Shown here in pieces: positions 3,656 through 29,249 of a DNA stretch of 40,766 nt. This stretch comes from Chlamydiota bacterium (GTDB taxonomy: Bacteria; Chlamydiota; Chlamydiia; Chlamydiales; SM23-39). The stretch is taken from NCBI GenBank assembly GCA_048498835.1, contig JBEHXF010000015.1, forward strand, positions 1 through 40,766, in the 5' to 3' direction. Each line of letters begins with the position of its first letter. The stretch's first letter is position 1. The notes below the pieces were generated by a model. It ran no database searches and had not been told where the DNA came from. It worked only from the letters and a program-made list of their open reading frames with translations. The position numbers and the translations under genes are program-made.

Positions 3656-3725
3656 ACCTGTGCTATACTTTCCCCTAGCAGATGTTCTCCAATGAATTCT
3701 CTATTCAGATTGAAGATATAAATCA

Positions 3726-3801
3726 GAAAAATATCAGCGCAGAGAAAAAGCAGAGGCGCTGAGACGCAGAGAAGAAATGTGAAAATAATCAAAATTCAGA
3801 A
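3726..3801 (+). repeat. Dispersed ~75-bp repeat, copy 1
   Basis: atatcagcgcagagaaaaagcagaggcgctgagacgcagagaagaaat...taatcaaaattcagaa; near-identical to 20367-20442 and, inverted, to 4847-4892. Confidence 0.9.
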
Positions 3802-3819
3802 CACCCTGCTACAAAAGGT

Positions 3820-4257
3820 ATGATTATGTCCTCTCTCCAGATTGAATTTGACCGTGCGTTGGCTTTTATAGCTTCATTAGAAATAGAAAAAATACCGGAC
3901 TTACAAAGACATATCGACCGATTTATTGAACGACTCCGAGATATTCAAAAAATTGCAAACAAGCGTCTTTCTAAAGCTCCCACCGAAAATGAAGCTTCTC
4001 TTTTAAATAAAGTCAAAAAGATTACGGATATGCTGTCTGAAATCCAAAGAAGGGAAAACTTTAGCGCGGACTCCCCTTATCAGGATACTTATCGGAGCTT
4101 TACTAGCGTGCTACAAGCTCAATTGAAGTACAACTGGGATTTTAACGCCGATTATTTCGAAAAGATGCTCAATAGATATGTGAATATCTACAACGAAGCG
4201 CTCAGTTTTGAAGAAGAGAGACGAGAGCTCGATGCAGCTGGCGATTTTTGGAGTTGA
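3820..4257 (+). CDS. Hypothetical helical protein
   Basis: 145-aa ORF filling the space, no recognised motif. Confidence 0.65.
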   Translation: MIMSSLQIEFDRALAFIASLEIEKIPDLQRHIDRFIERLRDIQKIANKRLSKAPTENEASLLNKVKKITDMLSEIQRRENFSADSPYQDTYRSFTSVLQAQLKYNWDFNADYFEKMLNRYVNIYNEALSFEEERRELDAAGDFWS

Positions 4258-4316
4258 CTTTACAAAAAACGAGTGCTAATTTGCTTCGCCATTTCTTTTT
4301 CTAACGGAGCAAATCG

Positions 4317-4805
4317 ATGAACGCACTAGAGCAAATTCAAAACCAATACCGCAACTATCAACAAAATCCCGCTGTTTTAGACAATGTGACAATGGATCAG
4401 TTAGATCGCGCTCTTCAGACAGATCTAAGAGCGAAAGAAGATCTGATCGATGGCACAACCATTCTCAATACAGCTTCTGCCATCGCTTTAATCGTCCTAC
4501 CCATCATCTTTATCGCAATCCCGGGCTGGATCTGTTTTTTTATCACGGCGCCACTGACTTACTACGCTTATGAAATGACGACTGCGACGGACAACGGTTT
4601 GGATATGCTGACAAATCCCAGGATCAGAACGAAATGCCTCATCTCCAAGCCCGAGTGTATGCACCGCGCCTTTTCAACAGCGCCGGTTATGAAGATGATC
4701 ATGTCTTGCGTTAAGATCAATAACCCAAATGATACTTGGGAATCGCTCGCATCGGGTTATTTAGGAGTGGGTGGACAGATCCCGTTCCGCTGGGCAATCA
4801 ACTAA
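4317..4805 (+). CDS. Hypothetical membrane protein with bilobed hydrophobic segment (Inc-like)
   Basis: GGAG RBS; ASAIALIVLPIIFIAIPGWICFFITAPLTYY hydrophobic hairpin. Confidence 0.7.
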   Translation: MNALEQIQNQYRNYQQNPAVLDNVTMDQLDRALQTDLRAKEDLIDGTTILNTASAIALIVLPIIFIAIPGWICFFITAPLTYYAYEMTTATDNGLDMLTNPRIRTKCLISKPECMHRAFSTAPVMKMIMSCVKINNPNDTWESLASGYLGVGGQIPFRWAIN

Positions 4806-4846
4806 GCTTGAGCAGGGACGCAGAGAAAAACACACTTCTCCATTAC

Positions 4847-4892
4847 TCTCTGCGTCTCAGCGCCTCTGCTTTTCCTCTGCGCTGATATTTTC
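4847..4892 (-). repeat. Dispersed repeat, copy 2 (inverted, partial), overlapping the rfbB 3' end
   Basis: Reverse complement gaaaatatcagcgcagaggaaaagcagaggcgctgagacgcagaga; gacgcagaga at 4817-4826 can pair with tctctgcgtc at 4847-4856. Confidence 0.85.
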
Positions 4893-13142: not shown

Positions 13143-13923
13143 TTATCTAGTAAGCAATTCTTGCCCTTGATTGATTTCGTCAATAACCTCATCCATGGAA
13201 GTGAGCTGTCCAAAGTAGCTGAAGAGCTTTGAGCCCAGAGAAATCGAACTGAATGGATGAAAGGCGTGTGCCTCTGTTTTGAAAAGTTTTGGTTAAGGCT
13301 TCTTTGAGTTTTTTTGGCTCAATTAGTCCATTGCTTCTCACAAGCAGAAGAAGGTCGTGATAGTCTTTCATGCGGCTATTTTTTGAACCTTTAGAGAGAA
13401 CTGTTTCTAACTTTTCTGCGAATATAGTCTCAATTGGATAGACGAGTAGGGAGACCGCATCTTCAAAAAAGGGCTTCCCGCGATATTGGAAAAGCTTGAT
13501 TTCTAGGGTGTGAGGTTTCACAACGTCACCTACGCCCACATCGATATGGATTTTGTCTTTCATTTTCGCGAAAGATGAGCTAAGCGTGATCCGGTATCCT
13601 GGATAGTCCATGTGTGGTTGAGAAAGTAACTCGATACTCGAAAAAGTAAACGTGAATCCGTCATCCAAAGCAACTGTAGCAATTTCTTTGCAGAGTTCCA
13701 CAAGAGTTTCCCTCTCCGCTTCCATTCGATTCAGTAGAAAATCGAGGTCTACTGTTTCCCTTCCTATTCTCATCATGTAGGCGAGAAGGAAACCACCTTT
13801 GAATATGAGCTTATTGGCATAAAATCTTTCTAAGAGTAGCTATTTCCAACACGAGTTGAATGGGATACTTTTTTCTTTTGCAATCGTTTGAAGTCGATCT
13901 TTTAGAGCTTGTTCGTTGATCAT
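13143..13923 (-). pseudogene. abiEii: AbiEii/AbiGii nucleotidyltransferase toxin (type IV TA), disrupted
   Basis: ATG 13923 coupled to the abiEi stop; MINEQALKDRLQTIAKEKSIPFNSCWK*LLLERFYANKLIFKGGFLL...RETVDLDF...FAEKL...NSRMKDYHDL; in-frame TAG at 13840-13842; tail EVIDEINQ out of frame after 13189. Confidence 0.88.
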
Positions 13924-14516
13924 GTGGTCACACTCAACAAATAGGGAGTGATGTTAAATCGGAGCTTCTTAGCATACGCTTCTAGCTTTACAAGATCGAG
14001 GCGGTTTTTTCCGCCCTTAGCAATCCCAGCCTTCAGCGCCTTGATCGCAGTCTCACGGCTCAAGAGTCGGAAGGCATCAATAATCGTTCGTTCTCGGTCG
14101 AAGATAGGAATGACCAGTCCTTCAACGTCAATCTCAGTTTTCCCTAATTCCAGGTTTCGGAAGCGGATAATTTTGGTTTGGCGATTGCTTCTAGCCGAAG
14201 TTCCGTGCCGGATACCAATCCAATGCTGACGAGGAAGTTCTTCCGTTAGATCATAGATGGCAAGAGCAGATAGGAGACAAACAACTCCGCTCGGAATAGA
14301 AAAGACAGCTTCTGCCAGATCCCCCCAACGAGTCGAGAAGGGGTTGTTTTTGCCTGCCTGTTGATATAGGCCACGGCCAATCCTTTTGAGCTTGCCTATC
14401 TTGACGTAGTGAGCGAGTACGGCTGAAGATAGTCCAAGGGCTCGAGCTTCTCTTGCAGTAAATGAGGGCTTATTTAGAAGAGGTTCTAGCGCCTGGAAGT
14501 ATCTTTTTTGTCTCAT
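13920..14516 (-). CDS. abiEi: AbiEi-family type IV TA antitoxin / transcriptional regulator
   Basis: N-terminal wHTH (LKRIGRGLY), VCLLSALAIYDLT, FDRERTIIDAFR. Confidence 0.9.
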   Translation of the reverse strand: MRQKRYFQALEPLLNKPSFTAREARALGLSSAVLAHYVKIGKLKRIGRGLYQQAGKNNPFSTRWGDLAEAVFSIPSGVVCLLSALAIYDLTEELPRQHWIGIRHGTSARSNRQTKIIRFRNLELGKTEIDVEGLVIPIFDRERTIIDAFRLLSRETAIKALKAGIAKGGKNRLDLVKLEAYAKKLRFNITPYLLSVTT

Positions 14517-20254: not shown

Positions 20255-20366
20255 ATAGTCGCCTCGATTGGCCAGTAGATTGTAAGTCTTTACTTAAAAT
20301 AGAAGCAAGAGAGCTTTAGAGAGTCTTCGGCAATAAATCTTTGATTCAGTTTGAGGGGATTAACGA

Positions 20367-20442
20367 GAAAGATATCAGCGTAGAGAAAAAGCAGAGGCGC
20401 TGAGACGCAGAGAAGAAATCCGAAAGTAATCAAAATTCAGAA
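20367..20442 (+). repeat. Dispersed ~75-bp repeat, copy 3
   Basis: gatatcagcgtagagaaaaagcagaggcgctgagacgcagagaagaaatccgaaagtaatcaaaattcagaa. Confidence 0.9.
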
Positions 20443-21525: not shown

Positions 21526-23172
21526 TTACTCTTCGCTTTTTCTTTCTACACCAAACCGCACTCTCTGCGCTCTTTTAAGTTTTTTTTGATGAAGTTCATC
21601 TAAAAATAAATGCGCTTGCGGATCATCCGATGCTTCAATTGCTTGGATACAAGCATCGAAAAATTCAAGACGCATGTGATGATACTCTTCTTCCCCCAAT
21701 GTATTTTTAAGATAGGCAAAAACACATTCAACCGTACAGTTTTTTCCTTTTTGCTCTCTTTGCCAAATGGGATTTTGACTCTCTATTTTTTTCGCTCCTG
21801 GCAGAGCTAAAAGAAAACGATAAAATTCATTAACAGATTTATCGGAATATGTATTGTCTATCAAATTTTTGATCAAAACGGAATCGACACTTTCCTTTGG
21901 AACTTGGAATTGCAACCGTGTTTGATAGCGACCACTCGATCTATCTTGATCATGAAATAATTTCAACCCATTTCCCGAATTGTATAGGTTGAAAATGAGA
22001 TCATTTTTGGTTGGCTCAATTTCTAATAATAGGACGTGGTTTAATACGCCAAGCGAAATAAATCGAGACTTATTGTTATCCATAAGATCTGTATATATTT
22101 CATTTACTGTAGCGTCAGTTAAGCGCTTGTGATCAATTTCTAGTAAAGAAGAGAACGCGTAAATAACGCGTGGATATTTTTGCTTTTTCTTAAAATAATC
22201 ACAAATAATAGAAATAGCGGCGGGTAACGAAATAAAAGAACCCTTTCTTAATATACTATAAAGAAAATATGGACTACTTAAAAAAGAACTGTCTCCAACA
22301 AAATAACCGTTTAGCCATTCCCCCTGAAGTTGATGTTTTACTTCATTTTTTTTTGTAAAGAATTTTCCCCTGCCGTGTCGCTTTCCCTGTTCAAAATCCC
22401 CCTCATAACAGTCGCCATTGGCATAGTAGAAGGTTCCCTTGCCTTGTCGCTCCCCTTGTTCATAATCCCCCACATAACGGTTACCATTGACATAGTAGAA
22501 GGTTCCCCTGCCGTGTCGCCTTCCATGTTCATAATCCCCCACATAACGGTTACCATTGGCATAATAGAAAACTCCTTTACCATGCGCCAAACCGTCTTGG
22601 CTACTCCCCACATAGCTATCTCCATTAGTTAAGTAGCAAATTCCTTGGCCATTAGCTTTATTGTTTTGAAAATCCCCCTCATATCGATTGCCACTGAGAT
22701 AATAGAACTTTCCTTTTCCGTGCCGCTTCCCTTGGCGAAAGTCTCCCTCATATCGCTCTCCAATGCGATAGTAGAACGTTCCCTTACCGTGCGGTTTCCC
22801 GCATTGATATTCTCCCTCATAACGGTCGCCATTGATAAACCAGCAAGTTCCATTGCCATGTCGCTCCCCCTGAAAATAGTCCCCTTCATAGCGGTCGCCA
22901 TTGTGAGGCACCCGATTAACTAACTCGTCTTCATTCCAATCGTCATGGAGATCATGCTCAGTCCCAATATAATCTCTCTCAGGAGCTAATCGTTCGATTT
23001 GGCGTTTACTCCAATAATAAACTTCTGTTGCAGTTGTATAAGCAACAACGCCAGATCCTAAGATGGGTAACACTTGGGAGATAAATGGGAAAGCGGCAGC
23101 AGCTCCCATACAGGCAGCCATACCGATGAGTTTTGGAGAGGAAAAGAAAGAACAGATATCCCGAATTTTCAT
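21526..23172 (-). CDS. MORN-repeat protein (8 full repeats) with N-terminal hydrophobic segment and C-terminal cysteine-protease-like domain
   Basis: 23-aa YEGDF..G.RHG.G..YY repeats; C-domain NHVLLLEIE...LYNSG...QREQKGKNC. Confidence 0.9.
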   Translation of the reverse strand: MKIRDICSFFSSPKLIGMAACMGAAAAFPFISQVLPILGSGVVAYTTATEVYYWSKRQIERLAPERDYIGTEHDLHDDWNEDELVNRVPHNGDRYEGDYFQGERHGNGTCWFINGDRYEGEYQCGKPHGKGTFYYRIGERYEGDFRQGKRHGKGKFYYLSGNRYEGDFQNNKANGQGICYLTNGDSYVGSSQDGLAHGKGVFYYANGNRYVGDYEHGRRHGRGTFYYVNGNRYVGDYEQGERQGKGTFYYANGDCYEGDFEQGKRHGRGKFFTKKNEVKHQLQGEWLNGYFVGDSSFLSSPYFLYSILRKGSFISLPAAISIICDYFKKKQKYPRVIYAFSSLLEIDHKRLTDATVNEIYTDLMDNNKSRFISLGVLNHVLLLEIEPTKNDLIFNLYNSGNGLKLFHDQDRSSGRYQTRLQFQVPKESVDSVLIKNLIDNTYSDKSVNEFYRFLLALPGAKKIESQNPIWQREQKGKNCTVECVFAYLKNTLGEEEYHHMRLEFFDACIQAIEASDDPQAHLFLDELHQKKLKRAQRVRFGVERKSEE

Positions 23173-23377
23173 ATTTGTTTCTATATTAATTTTTTAATAT
23201 TATAAATTAATTACAATAAACTTACTACACTGCATTTTAGAGTGTTTAATGGGATGTGGTTCTAAATAACAACCTACAGAAGTGAGTCACGCTTCTCTAA
23301 GCGCAAAGTAAAAGAGTTAGATTTTTGAATGTGAGAAAGGCTGCTCGAGGCCGACGGTTTCGCTTTATGAAAAGCAT

Positions 23378-24805
23378 CTAGCTCGATTTTCTTTTTTCAC
23401 TGTTCTCCAGTCGCTGAGCTCTTTTGAGTTTTTTTTGATGAAGCTCATCTAAAAATAAGTGCGCTTGCGGATCATCCGATGCTTCAATTGCTTGGATACA
23501 AGCATCGAAAAATTCAAGACGCATGTGATGATACTCTTCTTCCCCCAATGTATTTTTAAGATAGGCAAAAACACATTCAACCGTACAGTTTTTTCCTTTT
23601 TGAGCTCTTTGCCAAATGGGATTTAGGCTCTCTATTTTTTTCGCTCCTGGCAGAGCTAAAAGAAAATGATAAAAATCATGAGCAGATTTAGTTAAATAAG
23701 TGCCATCTAACAAATTTTTGATCAAAACGGAATCGACACTTTCTTTTGGAACTTGCAATTGCAACCGTGTTTGATAGCGACCACTCGATCTATCTTGATC
23801 ATGAAATTGCAACCCATCTCCCGAATTATACAGGTTGAAAATGAGATCATTTTTGATTGGCTCAATCTCTAATAATAGGGCATGGTTTAATACGCTAAAC
23901 GAAATAAATCGAGACTTATTGTTATCCATAAGATCAGTATATATTTCTTTTACTGTAGCGTCAGTTAAGCGCTTGTAAACAATTTCTAGTAAAGAAGAGA
24001 ACGCTTGAATAACTCGTGGATATTTTTGCTTTTTCTTAAAATAATCACCAATAATAGAAATAGCGACGGCTGACGAAATAAAACTATGCCTTCTTAATAT
24101 ACTATTAAGAAAGTATGGGCTACTTAAAAAAGAACTGTCTCCAACAAAAGAATCGTTTAGCCACTCTCCTTGAAGTACAGGTTGGGGTACTTGATTTTCT
24201 TCTGTAAAGAATTTTCCCTTGCCCTGTCGATTCCCTTCCTCAAAACCCCCTTCATACCGAGACCTATTGGAATAGTAGCAAATTCCCTTGCCATGTCGCT
24301 TCCCCTGCTGAAAGTCTCCCTCATATCGACTGCCTCTGGCTAAGCGGCAAGTTCCTCTACCGTGTATCTTACCGTTTTGAACGTCTCCCTCGTAGACAGT
24401 CCCATCAACAAAGTGAAACGTTCCCTTACCGTGTTCTTTTCCCTGCTGAAAGTCCCCCTCATATCGAGAGCCATTGCTATAGTACATTGTTCCTTTACCG
24501 TGCGGATTTCCGCATTGATAATCCCCTATATATTGATCGCCATTGGCATAATATAATGTTCCATTGCTTTGCGCTCCTTTGAGACACTGCTCTGTCCCAA
24601 TATAACCGTCTTCAGGTGCAAGTCGTTCGACCCGGCGTTTATTCCAGTAAAAAACCTCTTTTGCAGTTGTATAAGCAACAACGCTAGATCTTAAGATGGG
24701 TAACACTTGGGAGGTAAATGGTAAGGCAACAGCAGCTCCCATACAGACAGCCATACCGATGAGTTTTGAAGAGGAAAAGAAAGAACAGATATCCCGAATT
24801 TGCAT
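23378..24805 (-). CDS. MORN-repeat protein (5 full repeats), tandem paralogue of 21526..23172
   Basis: Highly similar N- and C-terminal domains and similar upstream regions. Confidence 0.9.
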   Translation of the reverse strand: MQIRDICSFFSSSKLIGMAVCMGAAVALPFTSQVLPILRSSVVAYTTAKEVFYWNKRRVERLAPEDGYIGTEQCLKGAQSNGTLYYANGDQYIGDYQCGNPHGKGTMYYSNGSRYEGDFQQGKEHGKGTFHFVDGTVYEGDVQNGKIHGRGTCRLARGSRYEGDFQQGKRHGKGICYYSNRSRYEGGFEEGNRQGKGKFFTEENQVPQPVLQGEWLNDSFVGDSSFLSSPYFLNSILRRHSFISSAVAISIIGDYFKKKQKYPRVIQAFSSLLEIVYKRLTDATVKEIYTDLMDNNKSRFISFSVLNHALLLEIEPIKNDLIFNLYNSGDGLQFHDQDRSSGRYQTRLQLQVPKESVDSVLIKNLLDGTYLTKSAHDFYHFLLALPGAKKIESLNPIWQRAQKGKNCTVECVFAYLKNTLGEEEYHHMRLEFFDACIQAIEASDDPQAHLFLDELHQKKLKRAQRLENSEKRKSS

Positions 24806-25160
24806 GTCTATTTTCTTGTTATTTTTGTAATATTATAAAATAATAATAGTAAATTTACTACTTTATACTTAAATCAAATAAACGATTTAAAAAAGCAAAT
24901 AAAAATCTGTTCTAGCTAAGTATTATTTAATGGGATGAAGCTCTAAACAACGATCTAAAGAAGAGACTCAAGCTCCCTGCAGAACGCAAAATAAAGAAAG
25001 AGACTTGTGGCCTAGTTTTGCGAAAAGCAATCTAGAATGATTGGCTTTCATCCCTATTTGGTGCAAGATTGGTCTATAAGCAAGGCGATGAAGATGAATG
25101 AAGATCTGAAGGTTAAAGAGACTTATTGCGCTTTCTCAAGAGGTTTGTTAGAATTAGGAT

Positions 25161-25222
25161 AAATGGATTGGGGGTTACCCGGTCGGCGCTAGACCTCGGA
25201 GAGATCCGGGGTCTTTCGCTTT
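25161..25222 (-). ncRNA. Candidate DUF3800-associated structured RNA
   Basis: Minus strand aaagcgaaagaccccggatctctccgaggtctagcgccgaccgggtaacccccaatccattt: hairpin agaccccgga/tccgaggtct plus ggg-taac-ccc, directly after the DUF3800 stop. Confidence 0.65.
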
Positions 25223-26016
25223 CAGGCTTTCGCAAAATCAAGAACTTTCTCAAGATCAAATCTCTTTCTGGCTTCACTATTTTTAGGAAAAATTTTCAAT
25301 CCCTTCTGCAAATAATCTGGGAATTTATGAAATTTTTGCTCAATGATTTTAAAAGCCAGGTTTTCTTCATGAGGTTTTAGTACATGTCGCCCAATTGGAT
25401 AAGCGATTAAATCAGCGAGCTGCAGCCCTATGCTATTCGCTTTTTTATCTCCAAAGATTAATTTCATAGGACACTGATCTTGCCATGGCTTATTTTTTTC
25501 GAGCATGCTAAGAAAGGCTTTCTCTAGTTCCTTGTTCTGATTGTCCATTCTTGATTCAATGACGATATGAGTAGTTCGCCCATTCTGATTCTTTTCCGTA
25601 AGAAATCGATAGAGTCGCTCTAGAGAAAATTGTAGTGCAAGCTTGTATGGATTAGCGGGGGTTACGTATTGTTCCTGAAGCAACCTCTTGTCAATACCAG
25701 TAGCTATAATTGTGAATGGAGAATCCTTGATCGCCTGGCTCAGAGCTGCCATGAAGAGTCCCCTTTGAGCCTGGCCCTGAAGAAAGTGAAAATCGTCAAT
25801 TTGCATTCTGATTTTTTTGCTATGAAGAACGGTCATATCATGACCCCAGGTGGCAAACTTAAACCCCTTTATATGCCTAACTACATCTGTGAGATATTCG
25901 CGTTTAGAAAAAATGCAAAACGCGAGAACAAACACAGGATAATCCTTATCCTCTAACGAAAGGTCGCCGCTTTCGTCAGCATATACAACGTAATCACTAT
26001 AATGATTTTCTCTCAC
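25222..26016 (-). CDS. DUF3800 domain protein (RNase H-like acidic motifs)
   Basis: VYADESGD, YPVFVLAFCIF, LHSKKIR, IVIESR, GLQLADLIAYPIGR. Confidence 0.88.
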   Translation of the reverse strand: MRENHYSDYVVYADESGDLSLEDKDYPVFVLAFCIFSKREYLTDVVRHIKGFKFATWGHDMTVLHSKKIRMQIDDFHFLQGQAQRGLFMAALSQAIKDSPFTIIATGIDKRLLQEQYVTPANPYKLALQFSLERLYRFLTEKNQNGRTTHIVIESRMDNQNKELEKAFLSMLEKNKPWQDQCPMKLIFGDKKANSIGLQLADLIAYPIGRHVLKPHEENLAFKIIEQKFHKFPDYLQKGLKIFPKNSEARKRFDLEKVLDFAKA

Positions 26017-26309
26017 TCTACCACGCAGAAATGGGCCATTTTCTCATGGGACAAAATTTTATTGCAATCGATTGGTATGATTTGAGAAATCTGGGCCCGC
26101 AATTTATGCTTGATTTGACCAAGTCCAATTAGCTCTAAAAATACAGCAGGAGTCCAAATCCATGTAAAATCCGTGTCTGCAAAGTTGGAGTGATATCGAT
26201 CCATCTGATCCAAGAACCGTTCCCAATTTTCAACCGCGACAGTTAACTGTTGCCCTTCCCCAACAAAAGCAATGGGAGACAAAATTGAAGTATCAAAAAA
26301 GAAATTTTT
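26013..26309 (-). pseudogene. Truncated PIN-like fragment
   Basis: Frame extends upstream of the TTG to KNFFFDTSIL; later WIWTPAVFLEL; no start codon upstream before an in-frame stop; too short for a full PIN domain. Confidence 0.4.
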
Positions 26310-26347
26310 CGTTGGCTTTATTTGGGGCGTATTGATCGCATTCTCTT

Positions 26348-26956
26348 CTAATGAATGTATCCTATTGTTAAGGCCAGAATATATTTGTTAATATTAATTC
26401 TTAGTGCCTTAGCATATTGTGAAAGCTTTGGCAAATCGGCTTTTGGTTTGGAAGAAGGTTTTAGATAAGCTTGAAGAGCCTTGATGGCAATTTCGTCACT
26501 TAAAATACGAAATGAATCGACTATGGTTCTTTCACGATCAAAGATTTTTACTTCATAGTTCCCCATCTTCACAGTTGTTAGTCCAAGATTCATATTTCTC
26601 ATTCGAACAATTCGGGTATGGGGGCGCTTCGGACTCTTATCCGTGTTGGGAATGGCAATCCAATACTCCCTCATGATCTGATCGGTCAAATGATAATAAC
26701 AAAGGGCTGAGATGAGACACACCACCCCTCTTGGGATACTCGAAGCAGTCAGCACAAGCTCTTCAAAATCAAGACTGACTCCACTCGAAGCTTCAGCTAC
26801 CCGATATAGTCCGCGCCCGACTCTTTCAATCAGCCCCTTCTGACAAAAATGGGCAAGCATTCGAGTGGGGATGCCCATAGAGCGTGCCTCAGTAGCCTTA
26901 AATATAGGCATTTTCAGAAGCGGTGCAAGAAGATGCTCATATTTAGATTGTTTCAT
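26348..26956 (-). CDS. abiEi: Second AbiEi-family antitoxin, no cognate AbiEii downstream
   Basis: IERVGRGLYR, VCLISALCYYHLTDQI, FDRERTIVDSFR; start placed at ATG 26956. Confidence 0.88.
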   Translation of the reverse strand: MKQSKYEHLLAPLLKMPIFKATEARSMGIPTRMLAHFCQKGLIERVGRGLYRVAEASSGVSLDFEELVLTASSIPRGVVCLISALCYYHLTDQIMREYWIAIPNTDKSPKRPHTRIVRMRNMNLGLTTVKMGNYEVKIFDRERTIVDSFRILSDEIAIKALQAYLKPSSKPKADLPKLSQYAKALRININKYILALTIGYIH

Positions 26957-26963
26957 ATTTCTA

Positions 26964-27012
26964 TATGTAACAGAGGCACTCACTAAACGTCAATGAGTAC
27001 CTGTGTTACATA
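26964..27012. promoter_or_regulatory. Inverted repeat operator upstream of second abiEi
   Basis: tatgtaacagaggcactca-N11-tgagtacctgtgttacata (17/19 match). Confidence 0.75.
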
Positions 27013-27056: not shown

Positions 27057-27156
27057 AATGCGCTGCACAACCTTACCCCAAAGAATGATGCATCCTTTGG
27101 GGGCCCTTGATGCTTGCCTGAAATAAGAATCGAACTTGCGATCTTCGCATGACGAA
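27057..27156 (-). repeat. Displaced, permuted copy of the tRNA-Thr-linked repeat (att-like)
   Basis: aatgcgctgc + spacer/palindrome + gcctgaaataagaatcgaacttgcgatcttcgcatgacgaa; similarity begins and ends at the anticodon loop. Confidence 0.9.
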
Positions 27157-27261
27157 CGCTAGGCTATCAACAGATATTCAGCAGGTTATAAAAAATTGAC
27201 CACTCTCAATTGCCTCCAGAAAGTGCATATCTTTTTCTTTAAGAATACCATTTTCCCGGAA

Positions 27262-27307
27262 TCGACATAAACTTATCAGATCGGTTATATTACCTATTAA
27301 ATAGGTA
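27262..27307 (+). promoter_or_regulatory. Putative promoter and palindromic operator for the HTH gene
   Basis: tcgaca-N18-tatatt overlapped by the palindrome tacctatt-a-aataggta (27291-27307). Confidence 0.5.
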
Positions 27308-27312
27308 TACCC

Positions 27313-27648
27313 ATGCTTGAGTATCTTTTTGCGAATAAGAACGTCGAAAAAGTCTTGATGTACTTATGCTTGCATGGCAAAGCTAGCGCGACTGAACTCA
27401 GCCGCTCCTTTGATTCAGCTCTAGATCCAATTCAAAAGACATTGCGGAAATTGGAGAGAGGGGGTCTTTTAGCCAGCTTCCTTGAGGGGAGAACGCGGGT
27501 ATTTCAATGGAATCCCCGTTATCCCTTTCTAGAAGAGATTCAAGCCCTGGCAAAAAAAGCATACAGTTTTTTACCTCCAGATATTCAGGAAGCTCGGTAC
27601 CAATCGACCAAAAGAAAGCGCCCTCGTAAAACGGGCAAGCCTCTATAG
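27313..27648 (+). CDS. Winged-HTH (ArsR/TrmB-like) DNA-binding protein
   Basis: SATELSRSF...IQKTLRKLERGGLL...GRTRVFQWNPRYPF. Confidence 0.85.
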   Translation: MLEYLFANKNVEKVLMYLCLHGKASATELSRSFDSALDPIQKTLRKLERGGLLASFLEGRTRVFQWNPRYPFLEEIQALAKKAYSFLPPDIQEARYQSTKRKRPRKTGKPL

Positions 27649-27653
27649 GAATT

Positions 27654-28040
27654 ATGGATTTTTCAAACCCCGATCTGTAAGAACTTGCCTGCTTGATTTA
27701 CGAGACTCTAAAAAATAGCGGTATTAATGCAGTCTTAGTCGGAGGTGCGTGCGTTTCTATTTACAGTCATAATCGATACCAGTCTTCAGATCTTGATTTT
27801 GCAACCTACGAAGAGATGAAACCGATAGAAAAGGCTTTGACAAAACTCGGCTTTAAAAGAACAGGCCGCCAGTTTTCTCATGATCAGTGCCCTATCTCAT
27901 AGACTTTGTAAACCCTCCCATCTCTATTGGTCATGAAGCATCCCACGAATTCACTACTCTAAACACTTCTGTTGGCTCCTTGCAACTCCTCTCTTTTACC
28001 GATTGCGTTAAGGATCGTCACGCCTCTTTCTTTCACTGGG
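27654..28040 (+). pseudogene. Nucleotidyltransferase-like protein, disrupted
   Basis: ATG 27654, in-frame TAA at 27678-27680, AVLVGGACVSIYS...SSDLDF motif, frameshift near 27890 (CP/YLIDFVNPP), apparent truncation after FFHWG. Confidence 0.75.
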
Positions 28041-28106
28041 GTGAGGTTCTCGGTTATATTCTTTCCAGTTACGGATACGGTGCTAACCTTTTTTCTTGAG
28101 AATCAT
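28041..28106 (-). mobile_element. Possible N-terminal remnant of an IS5-family (IS903-like) transposase
   Basis: MILKKKG*HRIRNWKEYNR resembles the RxRNWxxYN N-terminal motif; no terminal inverted repeat identified. Confidence 0.4.
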
Positions 28107-28223
28107 ACTGAGCTTAAAAGTTTTTTCTGTTCAGTAAACATGCCCACTCTTTTGCTGGCATACATCTCAATAACCATAGATAGGTATGGCAAAATATATG
28201 GGTATCTGGAAACATCATGAGGT

Positions 28224-28508
28224 ATAAGCAAAGCTGAATTTGAATGGAATCCTACGAAGGAAGCTGCAAATATTTCAAAGCACGGCGTTTCGTTTTTTGA
28301 TGCTCAACAAGCTTTTTTAGATCCACACCGAATCATTGCTCAAGATTTGCAGCACTCAAAAAATGAAAGCCGGTATTACTGTTTTGGCAAGGTAGAAGGA
28401 ATGGTTATGACCGTTCGATTTACCTATAGAAATCAAAAGATTCGCATTTTTGGCGCAGGCTATTGGCGAGAAGGGAGGAAAATTTATGAAAAAGAAACGC
28501 AAAACTAA
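28224..28508 (+). pseudogene. brnT: BrnT-family toxin lacking a canonical start codon
   Basis: EFEWNPTKEAANISKHGVSFFDAQQAFLDP...HSKNESRYYCFG...TVRFTYRNQKIRIFGAGYWR; frame opens after TGA 28218 with ATA at 28224 and no ATG/GTG/TTG before FEW. Confidence 0.8.
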
Positions 28509-28722
28509 ATATACAAATACATCTATTGGGAAAATTAAAATCGTTGATGATTTTTTACCCCAACCCAAAGATTTGGTTTTAAAAGAGGAAACGGCAAAGA
28601 TAACTATTTCCTTAACCAAGTCAAGTATTGAATTTTTTAAAAATGAAGCAGAAAAATATCATACAAATTATCAGACGATGATTAGAAGACTAATTGATAA
28701 ATACGCTTCACGGTATGCTTAG
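28486..28722 (+). CDS. BrnA/CopG-like ribbon-helix-helix antitoxin
   Basis: DDFLPQP, KITISL...IEFFK...YQTMIRRLID; GGAGG RBS before ATG 28486; overlaps brnT. Confidence 0.85.
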   Translation: MKKKRKTKYTNTSIGKIKIVDDFLPQPKDLVLKEETAKITISLTKSSIEFFKNEAEKYHTNYQTMIRRLIDKYASRYA

Positions 28723-28804
28723 GGATATATACCCATAAATCAGGTCAATCGACAAATAGAAAACTCGAAAATAAACATTATTTGTGATCATAAACTATTA
28801 ATAC

Positions 28805-29049
28805 GCCTGAAACAGGAGTCGAACCTGCGACCTTCGCATTACGAATGCGCTGCACAACCTTACCCTAAAGGATGATGCATCCTTTGGGGGCCCCTGATGC
28901 TTGCCTGAAACAAGAATCGAACTTGCGACCTTCGCATTACGAATGCGCTGCACAACCTTACCCCAAAGGATGATGCATCCTTTGGGGGCCCCTGATGCTT
29001 GCCTGAAACAAGAATCGAACTTGCGACCTTCGCATTACGAATGCGCTGC
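28805..29049 (-). repeat. 98-bp tandem repeat: 49 bp tRNA-Thr 3' part plus 49 bp spacer containing a 12-bp-stem palindrome
   Basis: gcctgaaac... starts at 28805, 28903 and 29001; spacer ccccaaaggatg-atg-catcctttgggg. Confidence 0.95.
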
Positions 29050-29072
29050 TCTACCAGCTGAGCTATCCAGGC
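29000..29072 (-). tRNA. tRNA-Thr (anticodon CGT), CCA not encoded
   Basis: GCCTGGATAGCTCAGCTGGTAGAGCAGCGCATTCGTAATGCGAAGGTCGCAAGTTCGATTCTTGTTTCAGGCA folds as a cloverleaf. Confidence 0.96.
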
Positions 29073-29249
29073 AAATGGAATGCAATATAGCGTATTCAGG
29101 GATGGCTTTTCTCTCAATGCCTTTCTATTAAATTCATCTAAGTCGTTGGTTTTCAGGTATTTTAATAATGAAGTGACTTAAAATTAATGTTTACAAGGAA
29201 ATGTTTTTATGATAAGATATAGTAAAGAACTATTAGGGTCAGGTGAATT

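Follow-up and report, generated by a model that had tools for sequence, protein, structure and literature searches.

Probable insertion of a small, decayed islet into a tandem tRNA-Thr tail copy in a chlamydial genome

The window analyzed here (the whole 40,766-nucleotide stretch, contig JBEHXF010000015.1 of assembly GCA_048498835.1) belongs to a draft genome of 1.97 Mb in 88 contigs. Below, G000 denotes the genome under study, other G numbers denote related genomes, and L numbers denote extracted loci. The single tRNA in the window, as judged by ARAGORN and Rfam, is tRNA-Thr(CGT), and Tandem Repeats Finder reports a 98-bp tandem period at 28805-29049 (2.5 copies, 97% matches). Each repeat unit is composed of a 49-bp spacer and a copy of tRNA positions 24-72. 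Outward from the gene, the order is: spacer S1, a perfect tRNA 24-72 copy, spacer S2, the V copy, 1.65 kb of cargo, A', spacer S3, and a stub. The features of the locus are:

28999..29073, minus strand: intact tRNA-Thr(CGT) with a genome-specific T-arm ('A type'), called by ARAGORN and Rfam and typed against 35 relatives.
28952..29000, minus strand: spacer S1 with a REP-like hairpin at 28961-28987, from sequence comparison.
28903..28951, minus strand: unit 1, tRNA positions 24-72, identical to the gene, unoccupied, with the whole anticodon arm present.
28854..28902, minus strand: spacer S2, one substitution relative to S1.
28805..28853, minus strand: foreign-type ('V') tRNA 3' copy with the same sequence as the intact tRNA of G117; it would be the attL core of islet B.
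28791..28803, minus strand: weak IHF-like site, one mismatch to the consensus; 8% of random 60-nt windows have one.
28450..28722, plus strand: brnA-like antitoxin, open frame (PF14384, E 5e-5, below the cut-off).
28224..28508, plus strand: brnT-like toxin (PF04365, E 7e-8), without a standard start codon where the G020 homolog starts.
27654..28044, plus strand: nucleotidyltransferase (DUF2204-like) pseudogene, with a frameshift near 27890 and similarity to about codon 134 of 178.
27313..27648, plus strand: winged-HTH partner, intact, with 90-96% identity to the G005, G020, and G031 homologs.
27160..27260, minus strand: decayed attR arm of islet B, aligning with the G005 and G125 attR arms; deletions have removed ~31 bp adjoining the core and one of the presumed pair of arm-type sites.
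27116..27159, minus strand: displaced host-type tRNA 3' part (A', putative attR core), 4 substitutions in 44 nt.
27057..27115, minus strand: spacer S3 (2 substitutions), followed by a 10-nt stub, all that is left of the next unit, which breaks off after anticodon-loop T33.
26348..27010, minus strand: abiEi antitoxin with an upstream inverted repeat; homology to relatives runs from ~27011.
26013..26350, minus strand: what remains of the abiEi partner, its N-terminal part; ~840 bp are deleted, the G116 counterpart has 347 aa, and there is a PIN-like lead.
25222..26016, minus strand: DUF3800 gene, intact; the last gene before attR in the G116 island.
25030..25221, minus strand: decayed attR arm of a G116-type island with a degenerate direct-repeat pair at 25057-25076 and no tRNA 3' copy.

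The copy at 28805-28853 carries a variant T-arm and has no spacer behind it, and BLAST confines the full spacer to three sites in the 1.97-Mb genome, S1, S2, and S3. The sequence-only reading from which this work started had described the 98-bp units, the variant T-arm copy lacking a spacer, and a host-type 3' part with spacer at 27057-27156, all of it accurately. It had also stated that similarity ends at the anticodon loop on both sides; this holds for the stub, which ends in the loop after T33, whereas the distal 3' part starts in the 5' strand of the anticodon stem, at about position 29 and with one mismatch, and resembles the attR sites of relatives. The 36 bp behind the stub match no other locus among those compared.

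Islet B (27160-28804) is 1.65 kb long, with a GC content of 0.385 as compared with 0.462 for the genome, and is bordered on the left by the foreign tail and on the right by an attR arm and the resident tail. The tail at 28805-28853 and the fragment at 27116-27159 have the same orientation, as in the end signature used by the Islander program, the left end being a repeat copy 147 bp from the gene. Islander also calls for intact att sites and a length of 2-200 kb; islet B measures 1.65 kb and its attR arm has two deletions. In G125, the end on the tRNA side shares the direct-repeat motif of the arm and has a V-like tail and, at L080:4671-5744, a 358-aa integrase; the G125 attR is on another contig. 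No PF00589 (tyrosine integrase) match is present on the contig under study; the three in the genome are all on other contigs, the closest, at 35-39% identity, lying beside tRNA-Asn. The cargo recurs in relatives: homologs of the wHTH and nucleotidyltransferase genes are found at the same tRNA in G005, G031, and G124 (85-87% DNA identity), and homologs of brnTA in G017 and G020 (74-79%). The partners of the damaged nucleotidyltransferase and brnT genes, wHTH and brnA, are both intact. The wHTH-nucleotidyltransferase pair also occurs 5' of the tRNA, in G074, and the module is therefore not confined to islands. Judged by its borders and content, islet B is likely the remnant of a tRNA-targeted integrase island.

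Beyond the stub, positions 25052-27011 align at 86-90% identity with the right-hand end of an island of 17.9 kb that is complete in G116. The order in that island is: tRNA, integrase (L075:15947-17221), primase/DUF3987, restriction-type genes, abiEi, a 347-aa partner, DUF3800, and attR. The partner has no match in Pfam, PADLOC, or NCBIfam, and Atlas gave PIN-like leads for it, all under 0.9. A search for a remnant tRNA tail beyond the abiEi block returned a best score of 20, equalled by 79 of 200 shuffles. The alignment identifies the abiEi-DUF3800 block as the right-hand remnant of a G116-type island whose integrase, left end, and attR core are lost, and because of this loss a second used slot is unsupported. 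The earlier proposal of a clean second insertion at 27057 is not supported: a normal insertion is expected to leave a restored tail after the stub, where there is none, and no displaced copy lies beyond. The breakpoint inside the loop suggests instead a deletion made by an integrase.

Several other features of the window were recorded. About 60 nt behind the DUF3800 stop (25165-25225) are identical in G116, with flanks 80-90% alike, and a similar stretch occurs in a tmRNA island of G020; it is a candidate structured RNA with no Rfam match. A second abiEi/abiEii-like pair at 13192-14516 is 39-43% identical to G010 proteins, its listed toxin ORF being shorter than the match. Two tandem MORN-repeat genes at 21526-24805 derive from a 1.85-kb duplication and contain 69-bp internal repeats, and a 56-bp inverted repeat at 3685-4891 surrounds two small ORFs (3820-4805), with a further copy at 20326-20442.

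We searched 61 and 103 related genomes, which yielded 35 loci with an intact tRNA-Thr(CGT), and scanned the downstream ORFs of 18 of these against Pfam. A tyrosine integrase adjoins the tRNA in 8 of the 18 (G002, G011, G031, G064, G116, G123, G125, and G126), several of which also carry primase and DUF3987 genes. Displaced tails lie on the same contig in G010, G011, G020, G026, G031, G116, and G123. The displaced tails of relatives begin between tRNA positions 24 and 32, which fits a crossover in the anticodon arm, and three kinds of short direct-repeat pairs flank the island ends, likely the arm-type sites of three integrase groups. In G116, islands are stacked at tRNA-Thr(CGT) in the absence of any 98-bp unit, so that islands can accumulate independently of the repeats. 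On these comparisons, tRNA-Thr(CGT) is an ordinary integrase hotspot in the family, and the earlier suggestion of crossover in the anticodon arm is supported.

Tyrosine integrases often follow an anticodon-loop subsite rule. The 49 bp repeated here include the anticodon arm, and the units could therefore be integration targets. A 19-bp anticodon-loop segment was reported to suffice for one integrase (bioRxiv 10.1101/2020.11.02.365908), and the 98-bp unit contains that segment.

Since the genome is a draft of 88 contigs, the tandem units might have been created during assembly. We regard this as extremely unlikely: the copies differ at diagnostic positions, and G112 and G020 (assemblies of ~10 and 6 contigs), from two other genera, have homologous units, each with local tails of its own. 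The unit is rare, being present in only 3 of 103 family genomes (G000, G020, and G112), and the three genera share the unit junction. A phylum-wide pattern matched 4 of 401 genomes, of which G000 and G112 are real and G074 and G308 are chance matches, G020 lying outside that sample. Scans for the hairpin-tail junction returned five matches in genome_contigs and one in metagenome_contigs; five of the six arose by chance, having no hairpin or tRNA tail, and the sixth added no new example.

The T-arm types bear on whether islet B entered a unit or the gene. The A type is found in the gene, in unit 1, and in the distal copy A', and in 0 of 35 relatives, as compared with 9 of 35 for V-like T-arms, which argues that A is resident and that V arrived with an element. 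The foreign origin proposed for the variant tail is thereby supported. What was called the 'variant' T-arm is the common form among relatives, and what was called the 'host' form is private to this genome. That the variant tail might be the host's ancestral form was considered and ruled out, as the genome-specific tail lies on both sides of V. Because the foreign tail stands behind a unit with A-type tails on either side, insertion into the repeat is the simplest history: entry into the unit takes one event, and entry into the gene takes one more, which would have to bring A-type units upstream of V.

Two other genera are informative here. In G112 (another genus), the homologous spacer follows the tRNA, then comes a tail of the type local to that genome, and the unit is empty. 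In G020 (a third genus), the homologous spacer is followed by a foreign tail with a mispaired T-stem, a GNAT gene, brnTA, a wHTH gene, an attR arm, and a host-type tail; host-type ends lie on both sides, and the foreign tail stands right behind the homologous unit, where the cargo starts at the unit's 3' copy. Elements with variant-like tails also exist among the integrase islands of relatives (G125, with 1-2 differences). With these and the G020 cargo, the check on relatives that the sequence-only reading had named as a possible refutation left its proposal standing. Insertion of islet B into a repeat unit, as put forward in the sequence-only reading, is supported by this parallel as the most economical history. 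Based on these comparisons, we propose, with moderate confidence, that islet B probably recombined into a tandem tRNA-tail copy and not into the gene, and that the locus comprises the decayed remains of likely two small tyrosine-integrase islands.

Several observations weigh against entry into the unit, which is itself carried by only 3 genomes. The distal tail and spacer show 6 changes in 93 nt, whereas in the proximal non-genic copies 1 position in 196 is changed (p = 0.005 by Fisher's test, or 0.06 when the proximal pair is counted once, with no signal in the 21 nt beyond slippage refresh), and V is undecayed, which fits a long stay inside a working gene. The greater decay of the distal copies keeps alive, as a rival, a history of plain tandem accretion, in which all islands entered the gene, islet B gave it the V tail, and A-type units were placed between later, either through recombination with a sibling chromosome that lacked the island or by riding on another element. 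Such a course has points in its favor: V matches the working tRNA of G117 exactly, in contrast to the decay of the distal copy and of islet B; no repeats accompany the islands stacked at the gene in G116; and other hairpin units separate the tRNA from an island's left arm in G017 and G074, which indicates that small units can arrive after an island. Its cost, however, is one additional event or more, together with fresh A-type units from some outside source. G112 suggests that units copy whichever tail is resident; in that case a later insertion would leave V instead of A on either side. In G020, the tail behind the unit, with its mispaired T-stem, could hardly have functioned in the gene. The G000 and G020 cases may in turn not be independent, since they share cargo types (74-78% identity). 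Taken together, we consider entry of all islands through the gene to be credible although unlikely.

In the favored history, with islet B entering a unit, the unit would be an accidental second attB. An older G116-type island would have entered the locus first, via a unit or the gene; a G125-type integrase would have crossed over in the anticodon loop of the unit and left its own tail; later deletions would have removed the integrase, left end, and attR core of the G116-type island, with one breakpoint inside the loop; and slippage would afterwards have added or refreshed the proximal units.

The sequence-only reading had gone further and suggested that the array could be a multi-slot landing pad that gathers toxin-antitoxin and defense cassettes while sparing the tRNA, an arrangement that, if selected, would be integron-like. 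Cargo does lie behind the unit in two of the three unit-bearing genomes, and it is TA-like. The same cargo, however, is found at the tRNA without any unit in G005, G010, G011, G017, G031, G116, and G124, and integration restores the tRNA anyway. No integrase resides at the locus or elsewhere on the contig, and a unit does not border every gene module; damage affects each of the three putative toxin genes, the two attR arms have decayed, unit 1 is empty, and the unit is as rare as given above. A selected landing pad is accordingly very unlikely, and the repeats would serve as passive decoys rather than as a selected cassette system. The locus is likely a variation on tandem accretion at an ordinary hotspot; an adaptive landing pad is unsupported, and a purpose-built one is unlikely.

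The spacer belongs to a dispersed hairpin family, found in at least 29 of 103 family genomes among the matches listed. Its hairpin of 12 bp has z = -4.3 relative to 200 shuffled sequences. Fifteen copies were used to build a model, with which up to 61 candidates across the 103 family genomes were scored, and 6 of the 12 pairs change on both sides, a score reached by 0 of 500 shuffles and inflated by kinship of the sequences. Three weaker copies occur elsewhere in G000, and the hairpin also nests in other tRNA-linked units. It was rejected as an intrinsic terminator, having no T-run and no terminator call, and Rfam matches no RNA in it besides the tRNA. REP/BIME palindromes go with RAYT transposases, and the spacer hairpin resembles them in being short and covarying, in having many dispersed copies in some genomes, and in nesting within mosaic repeats; it differs in that this genome has few copies and in showing no tie to Y1_Tnp. 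By presence or absence per genome, the Y1 transposase (PF01797) is in 40 of 103 genomes and absent from G000, G020, G066, and G074, and no association with RAYT was seen. At one locus (L141; G000 C2:28272-28776), two hairpin copies lie in long inverted repeats flanking a small ORF, which has a putative GxxExxY-like motif. A second tRNA with a similar unit is tRNA-Arg(TCT) in G007 (L147:1-105; G007:C181): two tails of this tRNA, of which the second begins in the anticodon loop, enclose the same REP-like hairpin at the end of a contig.

The 98-bp unit is best seen as a form of tRNA-linked repeat or as a collapsed island, the latter because one attR in G020 also starts at position 24. Another, hairpin-rich type of tRNA-linked repeat follows many tRNA genes and the tmRNA gene: in G000, an inverted copy of the gene's own T-arm and acceptor strand stands behind 5 of 35 tRNA and tmRNA genes, as compared with 2 of 1190 cross pairs in the control for this strict test. 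These units are at C5:64286, C7:20309, C16:22939, C23:29869, and C29:22651, with further loci at L005, L022, L031, L040, L049, L089, L090, L091, L114, L123, L124, and L125, and occur behind tRNA-Thr in G003, G004, G017, G020, G074, G081, and G124. The inverted copies are split by a hairpin, often end in a direct copy of ~17 nt, and track each host's own sequence; they are possibly more novel than the finding on islet B. Other tRNA islands with displaced tails in G000 are at C3:14362-23253 (tRNA-Asn, with an integrase), C4:21483-24923 (tRNA-Leu(TAA)), and C6:46146-50656 (tRNA-Met).

Complete islands of the relatives resemble P4-like or PICI-like satellites; they share with such satellites an integrase, a primase, DUF3987, and defense-type cargo, whereas here just cargo and att arms remain. 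Tandem accretion and deletion of islands were reportedly described by Pavlovic in 2004. Secondary att sites and tandem accretion are treated in PMC5812530, and the Islander work sets out the island signature and tandem arrays with displaced tDNA fragments (PMC4383910). The locus shares with Islander-type tRNA islands the use of tyrosine-integrase islands, tail replacement, a displaced fragment at the far end, and stacked and deleted elements, but islet B has a repeat unit, not the gene, at its left border, there is no integrase, and 1.65 kb is below the 2-kb floor. The tRNA-linked repeats of E. coli (TLRs, tyrT type) are described as repeating 18-19 bp of the upstream gene and having no known function (PMC8144298); processed unit RNAs have been reported for them. 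A TLR array consists of one to five units that contain no genes and lie immediately after a tRNA, and every unit closes with a copy of the gene's 3' end; the units here are likewise gene-free, directly behind the tRNA, and within 1-5 copies, but 49 bp are repeated instead of 18-19 bp, and the likeness is one of architecture. Our literature search, a weak one with subscription journals mostly outside it, found neither a report of integration into a tandem tRNA-tail repeat nor an account of such repeats in chlamydiae.

A broader and rather doubtful generalization may be offered for environmental chlamydiae: gene-free hairpin elements would copy the local tRNA or tmRNA end, in direct and mostly also inverted form; the 98-bp type would multiply attB by way of the anticodon arm; and satellite integrases would fill these copies, building TA-rich stacks off the gene. 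The cargo is known TA-type material in decay, and no new defense system is shown. If entry of islet B into the unit is true, tRNA-tail repeats, which have no known function in E. coli, can be real second integration sites, which would change how the order and borders of islands are read, as tools that assume gene entry for all islands would misplace such islands.
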